From Sphyrna mokarran (Eukaryota), in the NCBI GenBank assembly GCA_024679065.1, contig JAGIQG010000032.1, positions 12,276,001-12,340,000 of the forward strand: a DNA stretch of 64,000 nucleotides. The letters run 5' to 3'. Below, piece by piece: positions 6,801-63,545 of this stretch; position 1 is the stretch's first letter; each line of letters starts with the position of its first letter. The notes beneath the pieces are model-generated. The model had not been told where the DNA came from and did no database searches. It saw nothing but the letters and a program-made list of their open reading frames with translations. A program made the position numbers and the translations under genes.

Positions 6801-9800
6801 CAACATAACTTTATATTTTATGGTATGTGTGCTGTGTAGCAAGGCTATTATATAATTAGATAATTCCACTGAATTACAGTGAATGCAATTACATTCTGTA
6901 ACTTGAATTTGAAAAAGAGTGTTAAAAATGTTACTAATTTTTGGTAACTGTATATTGTAATGCAACAAGTTTAACTTTTGATTTCCAATGTTTTTGCTTT
7001 CTCTTGCAGCCTAATGGTAAAACCACTGGAGTCATGGCTGCAAATGATGCTGAAATGGGATCCAAAACAGCGAGGTGGCAATACAGATCCCCACGTAAAT
7101 CGACCATCATGTTTTTTACTTCTGGAACACATTTTAAGTCAAAAGGTTAGGAATATTGAGATAGCATAATAAAAAAAATCTTGGTTAAGTACACAATGTG
7201 CAATGTTGCTTTTCATTTGAATTGAATGACAAGAAAACCTCCTCTTTGTCTTAGCAAAAGTATTCAATTTCAGCCAAATGAGAATTTGTTTTATAATTTC
7301 AGGATTAGAATCATACAGAATGTTAATATACAGCCTTGTTTCAGAAGTGTTAGATTTTCATTGTGAATCTGAAGTCCCATACTTGCATAAAGTAGAACTG
7401 TTCAGTGTGGAAAAACACTCACTATTTTAGATTTTCTTTTCTATAAATAAGAACATTCTATCAATAAGATTGAGGCAGATTGTTGAATTTATAGCATTTA
7501 AGTTGGAACATAGGCAGGAGATCACTTTGCAGAGTGATTAGTGGATAGTTTGGGGCCTGATATACATGAGAAAACACAGTAAGAAGTCTCACAACATCCA
7601 ACAGGTTCGACAGGTTTATTTGGTAGCAAAAACCACTAGCTTTCGGAGCACTGCTTCTTCATCAGTAAGTGGAGTTCTGTTTACAAACCGGGCATATAAA
7701 GGCACAAGCTCTATTACAAGATAATGGTTGGAATTCGAGTCTTTACAGGTAATCAAGTCTTAAAGGTACAGACAGTGTGAGTGGAGAGAGAGTTAAGCAC
7801 AGGTTAAAGAGGTGTGTATTACCTCCATCCAGGACAGTTAATGAAATTTTAGTGAGATTTTGCAAACCCAGGCAAATGTAGGGATTACAGATATATCATC
7901 ACAGTTGGGTCTTCTGAACAATTAGTGTCAGTAGGTGTGATGACATGTCACACTATCTGTAACCCCCCACGACTTGCCTGGGCTTACAAAATCTCACTAA
8001 CTGTCCTGGCTGAAAACAATATACATCTCTTTAACCTGTGCTTAACCTCTCTCCATGCACATTGTCTGTACCTTAAAGAATTGATCATCTTTTAAGACTC
8101 GAATTCCAACCATTGTCTTGTAACAGAGCTTGTGTCTTTATATGCCCTGTTTGTGAACAGAACTCTCACCTACCTGACGAAGGAGCAGCACTCTGAAAGC
8201 TAGTAGATTTTGCTACCAAATAAATTGTTGGACTTTAAGAAGTGTTGTGAGACTTCTCACTGTGTTTACCCTAGTCCAACGCCAGCATCTCCACATCGTA
8301 TATGGGAAATCCAGAACTAAGTGTAGCCAATGTGCAAGTGGGTTTTAACTTATCCACAGAATTACATCATTTCCAGGTCTTCTGATCAATTAGCGTCATC
8401 GATTGTGATGACAACGTGCTTGATGCTATTTCAACTCCAGTGCTTAAGGGAACACTCCAAACATATGATTTGAAATTTGTCACCAGTATATAATTTGGGG
8501 CAATAAATATCACGTTCTTTGCAAAAGTAACACATTCCCTGCTGTCCTAAGAGGTGTCCCTACGTTTAAAAATACTCTGCTCTCCATAGTTGCTATTGCA
8601 TAGTGCCAGTACTTTTCCAAAGGCTCTATCACAACCTCAGGCCTTATTGCTCTCGATTCATTTGGATATATCTTTCATCTGATCCCAGAGCTTCATTCAT
8701 ACTGAGCAAATCAACAGATTGAAGTTCTGAGCAATATAGTTGTCCCTGAACATCTGCGCTTTCATTACGGTCTCACTTTCACCTTTTATGTGCTATAATT
8801 AACCCCAAATTTTACATTAAAAATAATTTGTTGCTTTTAAAGGTGAATTCTTATGTAATTATTCAAATGTTGCAAGTTGCTGAAATCATTCTTTGCCTTT
8901 GAGTGCTCTCTAGTGGTCAAATGCAAATAACCTGAGTGTGGGAAGAGTTCCAGGATGGGATTTTCCAATTTGTGCTCACTTGTAGGTAATTTTCCCCCAA
9001 TTTGATAAGCTGAAATCACTCACCCTAATGCTAATTTAATGTCAAGAAATGTGTTTGCACCTCACAGTTGTTCAAATTCTTTTACTGGGTCAATTAGATT
9101 TATAACTCTTCCAGTATTGGTGCACTTAGTGATAGACAGCCAATGCAATTCTGTGTTAAAGACAATAAGTTCTTTTAGAAGCTACCATTAAGTGCAGTCT
9201 TATTCTCGATTCTCATCCCTACTTTGCATGCAATAAAAGTAATCGAAATTTGACTCTTCAACCTTAAAGAAAGACGAGAAGCTCCTTTTACTCTTAGTCT
9301 TTCAGTCAAGAATAACACAGCTTGGGAAACAGACCCTACAGCCCAACGAGTCCTTGAAGGAATGTGGCCAGGTTTAATGTGGACTCAGCCAGGACTGTTG
9401 AGTATCAATATAAGTCAATAACTGGGGCAGATGTTGCTGGTTTCTTGTTGTTAAGATCTTCCCTTGAGTTTTGCAAAGTTGTAATATCTCTCTTATGAAC
9501 CTATCATCAATCCAGCCTTGGACTGCTGTAACAAACAGTACAGTTACAATGGGATGAATGGTATCTTGCCTTGCTATTAATTTTTATGATTATACATCCA
9601 TTATTATTCACTTTTATTTCTGTTTTCCAGCTGCTGAGCCACAGGGGTATCTTAGTTGTGCTTTGAACCCATCCTAAATTACTTCTATCCTTCAATTAGC
9701 AATCAAGTCTGAAATGATATTAGTGTCGCTAGTATCATTCTGATTCCTACATAGACAAATCCAGTCGAATTACAAAAAAATTAGCCAAATTATCAGTCTT

Positions 9801-21800: not shown

Positions 21801-24800
21801 TAAACTTTGCTAGTGCTTACAATTGTTGAACTGGAAGGAATCATTCTCATAATGCTTCAAAATCTATTGAGTGATAAGTAACAAATTAAGAATACATTGC
21901 AGCCTACAACACTCTGAGATGACTTAGCAGTACGAAGTGGAATATTATCTCCACTAAATGAATGACCTGTTTGAATTAATGGATATTTCTGGTGACCTTT
22001 TACACTACTGTGAAATGTGTTTTGGGATGATCAGCTTTTTATTGGATCTGTCACAAGGAAAGCTCAAAATGCAGTGTTTTATTTGTACGGTGTTTGCGCA
22101 GGAGATCATGACAGTAATGCTGTTTACAGCAGTGCACCTGGGATAAGGGTGTGGAAAGTTTATGACTCAGCTTTGTGCCAACTAAATAAAAACATTCCGA
22201 AGATACTTAGGTTCTCAACAGACATTCAGTCCAATTTGTCTAACATTTTCCTCTGACTTCGCCTTGTTACTTGTTTACGGGCTCCTGCTGTGATCTCTTT
22301 GCCTAGTTCGCATCACCAGACCTGTTACAAACCTCAACAGGGAGAAATCCCAATTTTGGGGTGAACTTAATTTGTGAAAATGAAATGTCAGTATCTTTCT
22401 GATTTTTCCCTTGACTTAGTGTCATAAAATAATACAGTTGTTTGTAGATGAGGAAAACTAAAGTGCCACTTGGTAGAATGTATGCTTTTTAAAAAATACT
22501 TATTGACACATATGATCCCGTTTTGGAGCTGGTACAGTGACATGAATAAATGTCTTTTCTGACCAGCCACTAGTACAAGAACAGCATTTAAATGTAATGT
22601 TTTTTCTCTATTGAAGAATATATTAGCAGCTGTTTGAAATAAAGGTGGATTTTAAAATTTACCCTCCAGAGAGTTAATTTCAATGTTTGAGCTATAGCAG
22701 GAAGTAAAATGCAAGCAAATATATGTGTGTATGAGGCAACAGGCCAGTTTCTAATGCCTGTAGATGTGAGATGAATCCTGAAAAAAGTTTTTTTTAAAAT
22801 TAAGTATTTGGATGTGCCATTTCACACACTTGACATCCTCATTGTTGTATTCTAAGAACATACTAACTTATCCATACCACATCAAAGGTAGTAAAGGATA
22901 AAATACGAGGGACGAGGCTGATAAGTTGTTGAAAGCAGTGTTGTTCAGCAGTAGAGGTTTAGAGCATGGAAATAGGCCCTGTGTCCCAACTTGTCCATGC
23001 CGCCCTTTTTTTTAAAAAACCCCTAAGCTAATCCCAATTGCCAGCTTTTGGCCCACATCCCTCCATGTCCATCATACCCATGTAACTATTTAAATGCTTT
23101 TTAAAAGACAAAATTGTATCTAAATCTATACTTCTTCTGGCAGCTTCTTCCAGGCACTCACCACTCTGTGTGGAAAAAATTGCCTTATGGACACTTTTGT
23201 ATCTTTCCCCTCCCACTTTAAACCTATGCCCTCTAGTTTTAGACTCCCCTACCTTTGGGAAAAGGTATTGACTACCTAGCTGATCTGTGCCTCTCAATGT
23301 TTTTGTAGACAACTGTAAGATCACTGCTCACTTTCCTATGCTCCAGAGGAAAAAGTCCCAGTCTATCTAGCCTGTCCTTATAACTCAAACCATCAAGTCT
23401 GTTAGCATCTTAGTAAATCTTTTCTGCACTCTTTCTAGTTTAATAATATCCTTTTTATACTAGGGTGACCAGAACAGTATTCCATGTGTGGCCTTACCAA
23501 CGTCTGGTGCAACTTCAACAAGACGTTCCAACTCCTGTATTCAGTGTTCTGATCAATGAAACCAAGCATACCAAATGCCTTCTTCACCACTCTGTCCACC
23601 TGTGACTTCACTTTCAAGGACCTGTGAACCTGTACCCCTAGATATTTGTTCTGTAACTCTCCCCAGGCCCTACCAAATGTATCACCTCGCATTTGTCTAA
23701 ATTAAACTCCATCTGCCCAATTGATCAAAATCCCATTGCAATTGGAGATAACTTTCTTCATTGTTCACTATGCCACCAATTTTGGTGTCATCTGCACGCG
23801 CACGCACGCACACACACACACACACACACACATACACACACACACACACCTGCACCTTTGTGTCTCTTTGCATCAGTTTTGGGGGGAAAGGGCATTTGAT
23901 TCCTTTGCAGTTGAATTCACACAGTTGATTCTTGCATCTACTTAGCAATATCGTGTCCATCCAACAGTAAGGATACTTCAGTTGCAAGAAATAAAAGAAC
24001 TAAGTTCATAAAGTGAATCCATGAAAATAGTTTTTAATAAAGTAACTTCATTACACCAAAACTCAGACCATGCCCTGAGCCACACTAGCTCCCACATCTA
24101 TCTGCTTTTTATTTATTCTGGGTCAGCTAGTCACCTGACCACTGTCATTTCGCCATTAGTTACATTGTCTACTGGCCAGCCGACCCTCACAGCATGTTAC
24201 CATTGGTTACATTATAGCAGATTCCAATGTTATCATTGGTTATATTTTAACAATATGCAATGTGTTCATTGCATTTTAATTGGCCAACCCAAATGGAAAG
24301 GGATGAAATGAAATGTATGTTGGTTAATAGGTAGATGAATTTTAAAATCTTTGCCAATTGCTGCACTTAGTTTAAAAGCAAATAACTGCGCTTGTTGGAA
24401 ATCTCAGCTGGTGTGACAGCATCTGTGAAGAGAGAATAGAACCAAAGCTTTGAGCCTGGATGACCCTTAAGCTGGAGCTAGGAGCTGTAAAGTCATGCAG
24501 ACTTGAAACAATAGCTCTATTCCCTCTCCACAGATGTCACCACAGTGAACATGTTGCTAGCAAAGAATTGAGGCTCATTTTTCTGTCTTACTGGAAGCAA
24601 AATAGTAGAAGTCAAATAGACTTTGATATTTGACCACATTCATTGGAGCTGGCAGAGGAACTTTGATACAGGACAATCTGTGTAAGGAGGTCCGAGTTGG
24701 AGAGTGAAATCTGTCCAGTTTAAAAATTGCTGTAATACCAACGCAGCACCACTGTGCTATTGCAATGCCCAAAATCTAAGTGCCATTCTTCTTAGGAAAA

Positions 24801-27800
24801 TAGTGCAAGACAATGGGAAGAAATTAGACCGTTAATGTCTATTTAGATAATGATGTGGAGATGCAGCGTTGGACTGGAGTAGGCACAGTAAGAAGTCTCA
24901 CAATACGGTGATGAGTCATTTGGTGAAGGGGCAGCACTCCGAAAGCTTGTGGCTTGTGCTATCAAATAATCCTTTTGGTATTGTGAGACTTTTTAACTGT
25001 ATTTCAATAATGATAGGGAGGAAGAAGTGCAACCCAATTACTGTCCATCACATATTCCATATGTATGTTTAAGCAACTGAATAAACTAATTATTCCATAT
25101 GTAACGGCCTTTTTGGGATAATTTACTTCAAGGATAACAACAATAATGAAATCTACAGCTCATTTCATTTTCAGAATTTTTTTTGGACATTTTAGGCTGC
25201 TGAAATTGGTCATTTGGAAGAACAAATCGTGGGACTGCACAGTGAAATAGTGGAACTGCAAAGAAGCCCATATGCGAGGCGGCAGGGAGATGTTATGGAA
25301 AACCTGTGAGGAAAAAAAAATTCCTAATACAATAGATTTCTGCATAATCTAAAGTGGCAACTTGTATCTTCCTAAAATAAACTTGTGGAAATCAGTGGAT
25401 TGCCACAGTGTCTGGTCAAAAGTGCCAACTTCATACTTGCGGCCGTCTTAATTCAACGAACATGAACGCATTAACTGCCTAAAGTCTAACTCCATTTTGT
25501 TCATTTCTTTTAAGTTTAAAGTTTATTTATTAGTGTCACAAGTAAGCTTACACTGACACTGCAATGAAGTTACTGTGAAAATCCCATAGTCACCATCCTC
25601 TTATACCTCTTCAGGTACAATGAGGGAAAATTTAGCATGGCCAATTGCTCTTCTCCATTCAAAAGTGATAAATAATAGAAGACACAGTAAAATGATATTA
25701 CACACAGTGTCAAATATGTTAGTTTTCACTGCCACGGCAATTGTGAAAATATTTATATGTGCTTTAATTGTCACCTGTATAAAAGCCAAGTAGCTGCGGA
25801 GGTGACAGTAGATACAGATTTATAAAGCATTTTGTCTGTTCTCGATCATCCTTTCAGAAAATGCCTATAGTTTTCCTGTTAGGGAACTCAAGTATTTTTA
25901 AACAATCCCAGGAGTTATGCCTCCAACTCTGCCACTTTAAGCTTTTCCATCTTAAGTTTTCTTTGCAAAACCTTGGATACTGAAGCCAATTGTCATTCAC
26001 CTGATAATGATTGAAGTCATATTTTTCCACAAAATATTTAAATAAGCTTTTATGTGCACGAGATATAATTAAAAGAGGTGTTTCTGTTTCAAGTTCCACT
26101 CCCTTGGTAGGGCGTATGTCGATTCCTAGAAAAAAACAGTAAACTCCATTTTCAACATCATGTAAATCTGAAGTCAAATGTAATATAAACCACTAAATCT
26201 AATTCTATCACTTAGAATCATAGAGTCCTACGTGCAGAAAGAGGCCATTCGGTCCATCAAGTCTGCACCAACAATTATCCCACCCAGGCACTTTTTCATA
26301 GCCCCATATATTTACCCTAGCCAGTTCCCCTGACACGAAGGGGCAATTTATCACGGCCAATCCACCTAATCCACACATCTTTGGACTTGGTGTGTTTTTG
26401 ACTTTGTCAAAAGATGTAATTTCATTGAATAACATAGAATCCGTTTTTGAGTAGGAAAAAGAAGTCCCAATTCTGGTTAAGACAAGCAAATCTATCATTG
26501 AACAGTTGTGTTAATTAGTGTAAAATCTGAAACTGCGAATACGGAAATGGGAAGTACTTTACTCTTGAAGTAGAAGGGTAAATATATTTCTAAACTTAAA
26601 GGAAAATGTATTGTGCTGTTGCACAGAAAGCAATAATTTAGTTCGGAGCTTTCATGAGGACAAATGCTTTAAGACAGTGCTTAGATTGAATAAGACCCAG
26701 AAAAATCTATAAGTATGCTTTCAGCACAACAGTGCAATCATCCACATGTTTAGATTAATTTATGAAAGGAATTATTTATGGCAAGTAATGGTCCTTCAAC
26801 AGACATAACAATTCATTAGATTGATTTACAAGTATGTTGACGTAATAAATCATTTCACTAATCATAATTTTCCTTTCTAGAGAAAAGAAAGCCATCGATT
26901 TATACAAGAAGCTCAAGGGAAAACCTAAAGGTATTGTGCACATTTTTAACCCTGCAGATTTAGCTTAATCGTTGTGAACATATAACAGAATATAAAATAC
27001 ACTTCTCAGATTTCTGATTAGATTTTATCCTAGACAACCCATAAACAATCGATCCTCGTTGACTTTAACCTGGTATAGGGGCCTTCTCAGAAAGAAGAGT
27101 AACCAGTTTTAATGTGTGGTGCTCCAGTTTGTCTGAACTCAGTCTGTCATTGAGGGCACTTGCGTGGAAAAGCGTGGAGATTTGTTGGATCATGTTAAGA
27201 TAGAATAAATGATGAAAATGAGCAGCAAAACTCTCGATGTATGAATGCATTATGGTCATCTTTCTGACTGACATTTGAGCACACACTATCCCATAGCAAC
27301 AATTAGAAGTTGGCAGTTTCACCAAAAACCATTCTTGCCTCTTTTCAACCCAGTTACGATAAAGTTTTGAGTTCTAAAAATGTGACTGATTTCTTGCAGC
27401 CAATCTTTGCATAATGCATTCCAGTAGCCAAGCTGCAAGTGTAAATCCAAGTATTTCTTTTATGCAGTGTAGGTTTCTGCTTCTGTCACCCTTTCGGGCA
27501 GAGTAACAGAAATAAAACAGCATCATTTGTTGTCCAAGTAATTTATTAGATGACTTTCAATTTAATAACTTATTTTTGTGTCTGCATCTTTAGTTATATA
27601 GTTTATAGATGTGGCTCACATCAAGTTCATTCACTGCCACAGAATTCATTGCTTTTGTCTGACTTGAGCAGGAGTTTTAGTATTAAAAACATACATTGCA
27701 ACATCTACTAATGACTGAAATGTCCTGGGTTGGATCCCTCACAAAGCAATCTTAATCCTTGGCACTGCACACATTTGATCCTCATCTAATCATTTAAAGA

Positions 27801-39492: not shown

Positions 39493-40524
39493 GTATTCCA
39501 AGTAATTTCACAGGCATGATCAAATTAAATTGAACACTAAGCCAAATTTTAGGGCAGATTCAAAGTGGTAAATTTTAAGAGGCATATTGAAAAAGGAAAG
39601 ATAAGTGTGGAGGTTTAGAGATGGAATTGTAAAGCTTTAGTGTTTTAGCAACTGAAGGCATGACTGTCAGTGATAGCGCAAATAAAATCTGTGATGGTCA
39701 GTAAATTTGAATTGGAAAAGTGCAGAAATCTCAGGGTTGTAAGGCTGAAGGAAGGAAGTGTTGAGGAATGGCGAGGCTATCGAATGATTTTAAAATCAAG
39801 ACATTACTTAACTGGGTGTCAGTAGAAATCAACAAGAATACCAAAAGTTTATAGTTAATAGAACATGGGAGGCTGGAGAGCAATGCATTGGAAAACCCTA
39901 TATAGGTATTAAAAGTCTTGGATAAGGAGTTCAACAGTGGGTGAACCTTGCTTCTATTCAGCCCCTTTGTAATGATCTCGTTTGTAAAATAATTTTAGTA
40001 TGTATGTGAAAATACCAGCGAGTCTTTCTGTACCAAGCTCCAGCCTTCACTATGAGAGTTCCCATGTTCTCTATAATAAAAATCCTGATGAGAAAACTTC
40101 TTTTAATTTTTTAAAAGTTTATTTTTATAAGGGGGAGAATACATTTCTGGCATATCTCTAGTTTCCCTGACAACTGAATGGTTAGGCCACCTCAAGACAT
40201 CAAGAATCAACAGTTAAAGACCAGAGTCACACATAGACTTGGTCAGCAAGAATTGACAACTTCCTATGTTAGTAGGGATAATGAGTAGCTTTGACAGTTT
40301 TTATATGCTTAGTTATTTCAAATGCATGAAACCTAACTTTCTTGACTAGAATGTTGATTTAATTTGAAGATGGATTTAGTTTGACAGTTACACAGATAAG
40401 ATCATATAGAGGAATATGGGCCAAATGTGGGCAATTGGGTTTTTAAAAAATGGGTGGCTTAGACAAATTGGGCCAAAGAGCCTGTTTCCATGCTGTAAAC
40501 CTCTATGACCGAGCATTCATAATC

Positions 40525-40955
40525 TAAACTCAAAATGCTCTAGATGCTGGACATCTGCAATATAAACATGTTAAAAGTCCTCTGGTCAGACTATCTGTGG
40601 AAAGAAAAACAGTGTGTTAAGTTAAGGACCTTTCTTTTGTCCTTGCTTTTTTAGTAGACACTATTCCATTGTCTTAAACCACTCCTCCATCACCCCAGGA
40701 TCATGCTCTTTTTCCACAACACCTTCCCATGTGAGTGAAGATGCAACAACCTGCCTTTCCATGATCCATGGATCCAAATCCTTTCCACATGAAACATTGA
40801 TCTAACTGGGTGTAATTTGCTGCTGCTCATAATGTGACCTCTTTTACATTAGAGAGATCAAACATAAGATAGATGCTTGCTTTATATAACATTTGTTCCA
40901 TCCAGAAGTGTAACCTTGAACTTCTGGTCACTTGCCATTTTAATTTTCTGACACT
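40525..40955 (+). mobile_element. Penelope-like relic: terminal-repeat arm followed by a degenerate GIY-YIG segment
   Basis: Family-B-like arm at 40525-40635; LFYIREIKH at 40839-40865 (compare YIGETKR) and VTCHFN near 40927-40944. Confidence 0.55.
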
Positions 40956-48973: not shown

Positions 48974-50680
48974 GTGAGTAGCGGTTGCGGTTGGAGGTGA
49001 AAGCTGCGGTTCCAGACTTGGAGAGGCTCAGTCTCAGACTCAGGGGCCTTGCCACCCTCTAATCCCCAACTTTTATTTCACGTAGGGGGAACACTTGGTT
49101 TATTTTTTTTAAGACTTTGGCGGGGAGAGCAAAGCCCCTCTTCCTCAGCCCAACCACCATTCTCAGCTGCAGCTCCACATTTCCATTCCCCCTCTCCCCC
49201 CATTGATTGTGTTGAAATGTTTCCTGTTTGTGTACAAACTCCTAATTGTGCTCATTTCCTGCTCTGTGCTTTTATCTGTATCCAGAATTGCTCTTTCCAA
49301 TCATTCACCCTTTCCATACTGCATTCCACGCAAGCCTCTGATTAATGTATTGTAGCTGTCAGATTTGCTGAGCCCATCTCCTGTCTGTTAATTCAGCACA
49401 GCAGACTTCTAAATCCCCTTCCCTTTCCACACTACTTGATGGGTGCAGCTTTATCCAGTTCTGAATTTGTGTGGCTCCTTTGTTTTTCACCAGACAGTTC
49501 ACTCTCTTAAGCTTTTCTGCTCTTACTAATCCTCGCTGCTTCTGAGGCCTCTTATCTCAAAGCCCCAGTCACCTCCCCCTGCCTAGTGTCATAATACCAC
49601 TTTGCCAGATGTCAATTTATTTTCTGTTTTCTCGGGTGTTGTTGGAGTAACTTAGACGTTTTGATTTGCTGCTAATTGCTAAGACGTAACCAGAAAGTGA
49701 ATATTTGCCACTTGAGAGGTTTGAACAAATATTAAAAATCCAATTTAAAGTGCATGGCATGTGCAAAAATGCTAGGATCGGGTTTGTGGATGAGATTGCT
49801 GGGTGAGCTTCAAATTGACTTCAGAGAGGTGATGTTGCTTAGTTGGAAGGCAAGTTAATTATCACTTGAGCATTCGAGCCTGTAATCCATTGCCATACTC
49901 TTGCAATTTAAGGTACTTCTCCTTTTCTACAATATTTATAATCTTCTATAAAATCCCTCTCACTAATCTACTTCCAAGGTTAAAGAGCCCAAATTTCTCC
50001 ATGATTGACAACTGTTGAGGCTTGTACATTATCACCGGAACATAAATGATTCAGTGACCAGAACTGGGCACTTCTGATGCACTCTGACCAGAGTATTGTA
50101 AAGTTTGATCAAATCTGATGTATTGTATTGTTTTGGCTGAATAATTCAGTGGATGTAAAAGATCCCACAATGCTATTTTTCCTTGACATCTATACCTCAG
50201 CTATTTCTTGTGATGTTGGTCATTTTCACTTTTTTGTGGCACTTGATGTGCTAATTGGATGTGAATCCTTCATTACAACAGTGACTGCACTTTGGAAATA
50301 CTTCCTTAGTTGTAAAGTGCAAAATAACTACAAATTATTTTAATCTGTTGGCACCCTGCCATTTTGCATGCGGTGTACAAAGGTCTTTTTCAGCTTCATC
50401 TTTTGCTATTTCACCCAATTCTGCTGCGTGGGTGTTTTCCACTTTTTTTGAGTGTTTCACTTCACATATATTGACATCAAATTTAATATCCCTTTGTTCT
50501 GACCACTTAGTCATTTTATTTAGTTTATTCTGTAATTTGAGCTGCCATTTTCTAGTTCGCTAACCCTCTTGGTTTGGTATCAGCTGCAAATTTGATTAAT
50601 TTGCATAGACTGTCTGATTTCAAGCCATTCTGCACTGGAAACTGTAGTAGATTGTACTGGAGGCATAACTAGAATGGAGT

Positions 50681-50914
50681 AGAAAACTCTCTTCAACACC
50701 AAGTTAAAGTCCAATAGGTTTATTTGGCAGCACAAGTCATTAGCTTTTGGAGCGCTGCCCTTTCTCAGGTAAGTGGGCCTTACTTACCTGACGAAAGGGC
50801 AGCGCTCGGAAAGCTGGTGGCTTGTGCTACCAAATAAACATGCTGGACTTTAACCTGGTATTGTGAAACTTCTTACTGTGTTTACCCCGGTCCAATACCA
50901 GCATCTCCACATCT
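50681..50914. mobile_element. palindromic Penelope-like element (family A) with perfect 15-bp TSD
   Basis: Near-spacerless hairpin centred on 50778; TAACTAGAATGGAGT at 50666-50680 and 50915-50929; hammerhead-like CTGACGA at 50788-50794 and GAAA at 50809-50812. Confidence 0.85.
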
Positions 50915-51081
50915 TAACTAGAATGGAGTCAGACAGTCACTTGATAGTATGGAACTTGAGTATCACTGAAAAGAGAGACGTGTCCAAGAATTTTGTCTTG
51001 CACTCATCAGGACACTTCGCAGAAATGTCAGTGTAAGGGGAAACAATTTATGCTGTTTGAAAAGAGAATTTTGCTTGTTGA

Positions 51082-54896: not shown

Positions 54897-63545
<8,649 letters not shown>

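Follow-up and report, generated by a model that had tools for sequence, protein, structure and literature searches.

The three palindromic insertions recognized in the 64,000-nt stretch of DNA analysed here (the window) are, judging from their sequence, very probably truncated insertions of a Penelope-like retrotransposon (PLE). Integration itself, and not the RNA, is the likely source of their mirror-image form, and the family is possibly already present in repeat libraries. Several traits of PLEs were found, namely an inverted 5'-truncated copy beside the pseudo-LTR (pLTR) at all three loci, a tail on one side only, target duplications of variable sequence and a minimal hammerhead motif. PLEs typically show, according to PMC8557442, an inverted 5'-truncated copy next to a pLTR together with a tail of 30-40 bp on one end. 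Derivation from a PLE, as put forward in the original prediction, is supported by the inverted truncated copy, the one-sided tail and the minimal hammerhead, and also by a run-on of the arm repeat into an open frame.

Structure of the three insertions

Three related head-to-head insertions, referred to as copies A, B and C, were located at 7572-8297, 24852-25004 and 50681-50913, with copy B oriented oppositely to the other two. Their arm segments are 78-85% alike in all ten of the ten pairings, which bears out the expectation of three related insertions sharing one layout. The differences among the copies are mostly transitions, and the two arms within an insertion are no closer to each other than are arms from separate insertions. 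Given a likeness of 81-83% between the arms within a copy, A, B and C are old and decayed. No further substantial copy of the arm repeat was found elsewhere in the 64,000-nt window.

The tailless arm of copy A (7572-7893, - strand), interpreted as an inverted 5'-truncated pLTR, shows 81% likeness with the right arm across 327 columns. The tailed arm, the putative pLTR itself (7944-8267, + strand), pairs with the left arm over 7954-8267 and is followed on the right by a tail of 30 nt (8268-8297, + strand), with the 3' end of the family at 8297. A filler occupies the centre (7894-7943, + strand) and matches the right flank at 8356-8413. Copy B carries its tail at 24852; its tailed arm (24852-24906, - strand) comprises the 30-nt tail and 25 nt without a hammerhead, and is separated by a 7-nt filler (24907-24913) from a tailless arm of about 90 nt with a decayed hammerhead (24914-25004, + strand). 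The arms of copy C are about 95-100 nt long and 83% alike, the tailless one (50681-50774, - strand) having a damaged hammerhead core and the tailed one (50782-50913, + strand) an intact core at 50788 and a 36-nt tail (50878-50913). The 7 nt between them (50775-50781) form the centre of a near-perfect hairpin.

Head-to-head arms of which one runs on for about 30 nt had been anticipated, and the one-sided tails of 30 (A), 30 (B) and 36 nt (C), present in three of three loci, agree with this. The arm lengths first given (about 315, 25 and 95) hold for A and C but not for B, in which 25 nt plus the tail stand against about 90 nt. No open reading frame of at least 100 aa overlaps copies A, B or C, in line with the earlier statement that an ORF is lacking; this statement needs amending only for the right arm of A, at the start of which the final codons of a frame and its stop appear to lie (7945-7962).

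Candidate target duplications flank each insertion on the + strand, at 7562-7573 and 8298-8309 in copy A (9/12 positions, with three transitions), at 24840-24854 and 25000-25014 in copy B (13/15) and at 50666-50680 and 50915-50929 in copy C (15/15). They are 12-15 bp long and each of different sequence, compared with the 11-15 bp duplications of differing sequence reported previously. Scored without anchoring against 3000 random sequence pairs, the duplications of C and B are significant, with 1/3000 and 6/3000 pairs respectively scoring as high. That of A (267/3000) is not significant in the unanchored test alone, yet it lies exactly at both junctions. Furthermore, at six of the six primed ends of the three copies, 2-5 nt are common to element and target.

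Hammerhead motifs

The exact CUGANGA...GAAA core is intact in three of the five long arms, at 7665 on the - strand and at 8174 and 50788 on the + strand, whereas the left arm of copy C has lost one base and the G of GAAA and the core of copy B is substituted. The claim that every arm of sufficient length bears the core thus holds for three arms and fails for two. The minimal motif of copy A spans 7633-7669 (- strand, core starting at 7665) in the left arm and 8170-8206 (+ strand) in the right arm, where helix I has 4 bp, an extra A is present, helix II has 5 bp and a palindromic AGCU stands in for helix III. In minimal PLE hammerheads as described, helix I is short, an additional base precedes helix II, there is a G-C closing pair and a palindrome replaces helix III, and close hammerhead pairs on opposite strands have been attributed to truncated PLEs (PMC4209133). 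The motif features accord with the minimal PLE-type hammerhead that had been claimed.

The bare core motif is not rare, eight occurrences being found in the window against 5.2 ± 2.0 expected by chance. Searching Rfam for the predicted hammerhead gave no match at gathering level, nor any at E ≤ 10 around copies A and C; microRNA-like Rfam matches at A and C fell far under their gathering scores and were rejected as reflecting the hairpin only. Covariation of the helices in decayed copies was not above that of shuffled controls (82% of cells paired, with 275 of 500 shuffles as high). The two hammerheads of one copy are on opposite strands and fall within predicted hairpins of -429 kcal/mol (A) and -124 kcal/mol (C); if A or C were transcribed throughout, both ribozyme motifs would be locked into one long hairpin. 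On the PLE reading, the motif is carried along with the pLTR.

Abundance of the arm repeat and its probable link to a coding frame

Four public runs (X1, X2, X10 and X22, the last of which is RNA by guess only) supplied contigs that were placed on 7300-8700 at 80% likeness. The numbers placed were 50,025 (X1), 59,362 (X2), 13,774 (X10) and 1,544 (X22), nearly all of them on the arms, and the flank depth was about 10-17. Although depth is not copy number, the great abundance of the arm repeat is clear for at least three organisms. A sharp 3' end is evident at 8297, where 1133 (X1), 816 (X2) and 77 (X22) contigs exit into diverse flanks with an agreement of 0.37. The weak consensus past this point opens with ATG, possibly the first codon in the frame of the element.

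Upstream of 7944, 24 contigs of X10 extend with an agreement of 0.74, among the best 24 of 2281 loose ends ranked by support. Read by hand, this run-on gives an open frame to a stop at 7960-7962, which L-N-R precedes by twelve codons. The terminal residues of Neptune endonucleases are GLNR or GLNE (supplement of PMC8557442), and, based on the X10 run-on and these Neptune termini, 7944-7962 (+ strand) would hold the last codons and stop of a likely PLE GIY-YIG frame, the link being one 30-letter loose-end consensus in one of the four runs, with R where the motif has G. The arm is thus likely the 3' pLTR of a coding PLE, the main evidence being this run-on into an open frame with L-N-R. A homologue search with the arm translation returned no PLE protein, and no full element was recovered.

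Contigs from the X10 flanks cease matching at 7573 and 8299. Copy A is common to organism B, with X2 contigs entering the element from both flanks. One X1 contig joins the end of the tail to the start of the inverted arm (8297/7576) through 12 other letters, possibly as a tail-to-tail or tandem unit.

Arm starts near the ribozyme

A preferred 5' start of short arms was noted at 8167-8169 (+ strand; 8168 in copy A), 6 nt before the hammerhead core. The tailless arm of copy B and both arms of copy C all start no more than about 2 nt from the position corresponding to 8168. Four of the five readable fillers near the ribozyme, taken from the best 12 of 411 fillers, begin likewise, and the fifth begins near 8161. 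Overall, seven of the eight readable arm starts near the ribozyme fall within about 2 nt of one base, in a small sample chosen for its support; the reference also carries an indel near 7665/8165 that bears on this clustering. It is tentatively suggested from these positions, at somewhat less than an even chance, that the cluster represents run-off at an RNA 5' end. A defined RNA 5' end at about 8168, with priming at the upstream pLTR tail, would cause short copies to resemble one family.

A G directly before the arm start, a possible copy of a cap, was present in three of eight readable arms, which is within chance. The sequence at 8137-8144 is TATA-like, but more convincingly so on the antisense strand, and the Penelope promoter of D. 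virilis is described as TATA-less and internal (PMC2377424), so that a transcription start at 8168 is a guess.

Centres, joints and filler

Copies A, B and C have three different centres. For other copies, joints were read from the best 15 of 554 joints and the best 12 of 411 fillers, by support. Five of these 15 joints skip from left to right on one strand and so represent head-to-head centres in other copies; the other ten, opposite-strand switches at equivalent arm positions, were dismissed as artefacts of the two-armed reference. The 12 fillers comprise four more head-to-head centres, two repeats of joints already counted, four ambiguous cases and two other events. The strand-ambiguous cases (7598/8173, 7628/8143, 7738/7967 and 7875/8006) were left out of the head-to-head count. 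At least nine distinct head-to-head centres occur among those listed, of which 7790/8137, 7763/7943 and 7596/8172 are strongly asymmetric. Considering these joints together with the three differing centres of the window, the proposal that the palindrome is rebuilt at each insertion is mostly upheld.

The centre joints of X1, with 7, 3, 5 and 6 contigs at 15-22 each against a flank depth of 14-17, look approximately single-copy. A few junction contigs were found at 5-10 times flank depth (56-74 in X10, 97 in X2 and 159 in X1), which hints at re-amplified palindromes or may reflect segmental duplications. These high-depth junctions are 7654/8173, 7628/8143 and 7738/7967 in X10, 7790/8137 in X2 and 7875/8006 in X1.

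The filler of copy A at 7908-7945 is a same-strand copy of the insertion's own right flank at 8376-8413 (33/39 columns). The match scores 44, as high as none of 5000 shuffles, and the best match elsewhere in the window scores 23. It extends to 7887-7945 versus 8356-8413 (45/60 columns), and the filler was likely templated by the host flank at 8356-8413 (+ strand), on which flank contigs from X2 and X10 also lie. Five nucleotides are shared between the filler and the left arm end, and two between the filler and the right arm start. The simplest reading would be that the cDNA growing from the left target end of A used the resected right end as template before it was joined to the cDNA from the right. 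Such a course would need priming at both target ends. Copy B points in this direction too: neither of its arms could have been folded back from the other, because the tailless arm carries about 65 nt which the tailed arm lacks.

Other elements in the window

The relics at 20.9 and 40.7 kb had been proposed as the source of the mobilizing enzymes. An inverted tailed terminus (40520-40635, - strand) adjoins the 40.7 kb relic (40690-40946, + strand). This terminus gave z 7.4 against the palindrome at 61.6 kb, compared with z 1.9 and 0.3 against the arms of A and C, and by these scores belongs to a second PLE family, different from that of copies A, B and C. The relic itself appears by eye to resemble Neptune endonucleases; its homologue search gave one spurious match (E 7e-4) whose relatives added nothing. 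No homologue of the 20.9 kb relic was found in the protein search, and Pfam and PDB searches recognized neither relic as a PLE protein. Mobilization by these two relics is not borne out, the terminus at 40.7 kb being of another family and the 20.9 kb relic unmatched. The second family also includes mini-palindromes at 24420-24536 and at about 61570-61760, centred near a hammerhead, with an intact core at 61681, a 5-bp helix II and a possible 10-bp duplication (9/10).

The window is rich in interspersed repeats, including the SINE-like families D1-D8 with many copies, which may resemble shark SINEs. A coding exon of an erlin (SPFH) gene was recognized at 61932-62051 (+ strand; E about 1e-20 to Erlin-1 and Erlin-2 chains). 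A fold-back palindrome at 59274-59410 (80%, with a 5-nt spacer and a 9-bp direct repeat on each side) stands at the 5' end of an apparent truncated LINE frame at 59311-59679 (match to Pfam PF09004). A metagenome scan with the tail motif gave a single match (L001 4038-5252, - strand), which lies in what looks by eye like a CheB-like gene of a bacterial chemotaxis cluster with 64% GC and was set aside as chance.

Proposed integration mechanism and alternative explanations

Given an origin by PLE truncation, we lean slightly towards priming at both target ends. The GIY-YIG domain would cut AT-rich DNA with a stagger of 12-16 nt, and both target 3' ends would prime reverse transcription using microhomologies of 2-5 nt, the first at the end of the tail and the second 30-36 nt further in. 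The two cDNAs would stop early and be linked head to head by host end-joining; in copy A, about 50 nt of the resected right flank would be copied before joining, and the short arms of B and C would likely stop at the RNA 5' end, 6 nt before the ribozyme core. The resulting copies would be dead ends. The PLE protein of the anole is reported to cut and extend both target strands, with reverse transcription starting at two internal sites that bound the tail; it is a predicted dimer, and ribozyme cleavage is not needed in vitro (PMC11167929). How PLEs build inverted ends has been described as still open (PMC8557442, PMC11167929). A more far-reaching proposal, which we regard as somewhat doubtful, is that the mini-palindromes, present in thousands, would preserve, like fossils, the traces of PLE dimers carrying out target-primed reverse transcription from two ends, with cDNAs primed at the upstream pLTR tail running off a capped RNA 5' end that lies 6 nt ahead of the hammerhead, 'strong-stop' arms of 100/130 nt mimicking a MITE family, flank-templated end-joining and possible re-mobilization of some copies.

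The same PLE origin might instead be combined with a second arm made by fold-back or self-priming of one cDNA, or of an antisense template, stopping 30-36 nt short. The arms of copy A end within 10 nt of each other and those of copy C within 2 nt, the latter around a near-perfect hairpin centre, and self-priming has been proposed for the palindromes at the inverted junctions of Adineta PLEs, which have a 31-bp tail and 8-10 bp target duplications (PMC3846280). Such a course is nevertheless rather unlikely, considering that the tailless arm of copy B is the longer one, that the joints 7790/8137, 7763/7943 and 7596/8172 are strongly asymmetric, and that the filler of A would presumably have to be copied from a strand lost to end resection. 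The near-equal arms of A and C fit fold-back of a single cDNA equally well, and the arm asymmetry of B could stem from a later deletion. It is less probable still that short palindromes such as copy C are a non-autonomous family, transcribed and re-inserted in trans by PLE enzymes. Arm starts clustered at one base would give stereotyped units of about 230 bp, some junction contigs reach 5-10 times flank depth, pLTR ends are described as sufficient in cis for trans-mobilization (PMC3846280), and non-autonomous PLEs exist (PMC8557442). However, the three window centres all differ, most junction contigs of X1 look single-copy, the arms in one copy resemble other copies no more than they resemble each other, and the high-depth junctions may be segmental duplications, all of which makes this explanation improbable.

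A retrozyme proper, in which monomers cut by the ribozyme circularize and are reverse-transcribed into tandem arrays, would account for the type I hammerhead motif, the large target duplications and a GC content under 45%, and retrozymes are reported to be related to pLTRs (bioRxiv 10.64898/2026.07.22.740005). This origin is very improbable for the insertions studied here, given that no tandem units occur at the three loci in the window, that the hammerheads lie on opposite strands and are minimal rather than canonical, and that the ends do not fall at the predicted cleavage site near 8202; a one-sided tail is also not among the retrozyme features described in the available part of PMC7229834. 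The original prediction of a separate, non-autonomous retrozyme-like family thus found no support, the arm appearing to run into a coding frame. It fared better in denying that these are MITEs, as fixed-length terminal inverted repeats and short fixed duplications were not seen. Although a MITE or other DNA transposon with terminal inverted repeats would also be palindromic, non-coding, high in copy number and flanked by target duplications, the tail on one side only, the arms varying from 25 to 320 nt, the duplications of 12-15 bp with differing sequence and the apparent continuation of the arm into a coding frame make this hardly credible.

As an element, the PLE described here is ordinary, and its main extra value lies in what the junctions hint about PLE insertion. 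Hammerhead-centred palindromes of this kind belong under Penelope in repeat annotation, not under MITE or retrozyme. In a genome with very many such junctions, two-ended priming versus fold-back becomes countable, the readouts being arm asymmetry, arm starts and the origin of the filler.

Comparison with known systems

The closest resemblance is to the insertion units of EN+ PLEs such as Neptune and Poseidon (PMC8557442, Fig. 2; PMC3846280), with which copies A, B and C share head-to-head arms, a one-sided tail, long duplications, junction palindromes, a minimal hammerhead in the repeat and heavy 5' truncation. They differ from these units in the absence of RT, in a frame reduced to six codons at most, in arm starts that cluster before the ribozyme, and in the centre of A, which copies the local flank. 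Neither the cluster of arm starts next to the ribozyme nor a centre copied from the flank was found described in a literature search that covered few subscription papers.

The hammerheads are alike to the minimal type I hammerheads of metazoan PLEs in the 4-bp helix I, the extra base and the G-C closing pair, and those hammerheads also occur as pairs 100-700 bp apart on opposite strands with palindromic bases replacing helix III, as here (PMC4209133). Helix II has 5 bp and a 3-nt loop in this family, compared with 7-8 bp in Schistosoma (PMC4209133), and two of the five motifs found here are damaged.

Retrozymes are known as head-to-tail arrays with circular RNAs (PMC7229834; bioRxiv 10.64898/2026.07.22.740005). 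The non-LTR retrozymes of metazoans are alike to copies A, B and C in being non-coding, in the type I hammerhead, in their kinship with pLTRs and in large target duplications. They are described, however, as head-to-tail arrays of a fixed monomer with circular RNAs, whereas A, B and C are single head-to-head insertions with variable arms; no head-to-tail tandem monomers were found at the three loci on searching the window.

The twin-priming inversions of L1 offer a parallel, in that each of the two target ends would serve as primer on the element RNA and microhomology closes the centre. The inverted part of such an L1 insertion does not repeat the 3' part, whereas the two arms of copies A, B and C both copy the same 3' end.
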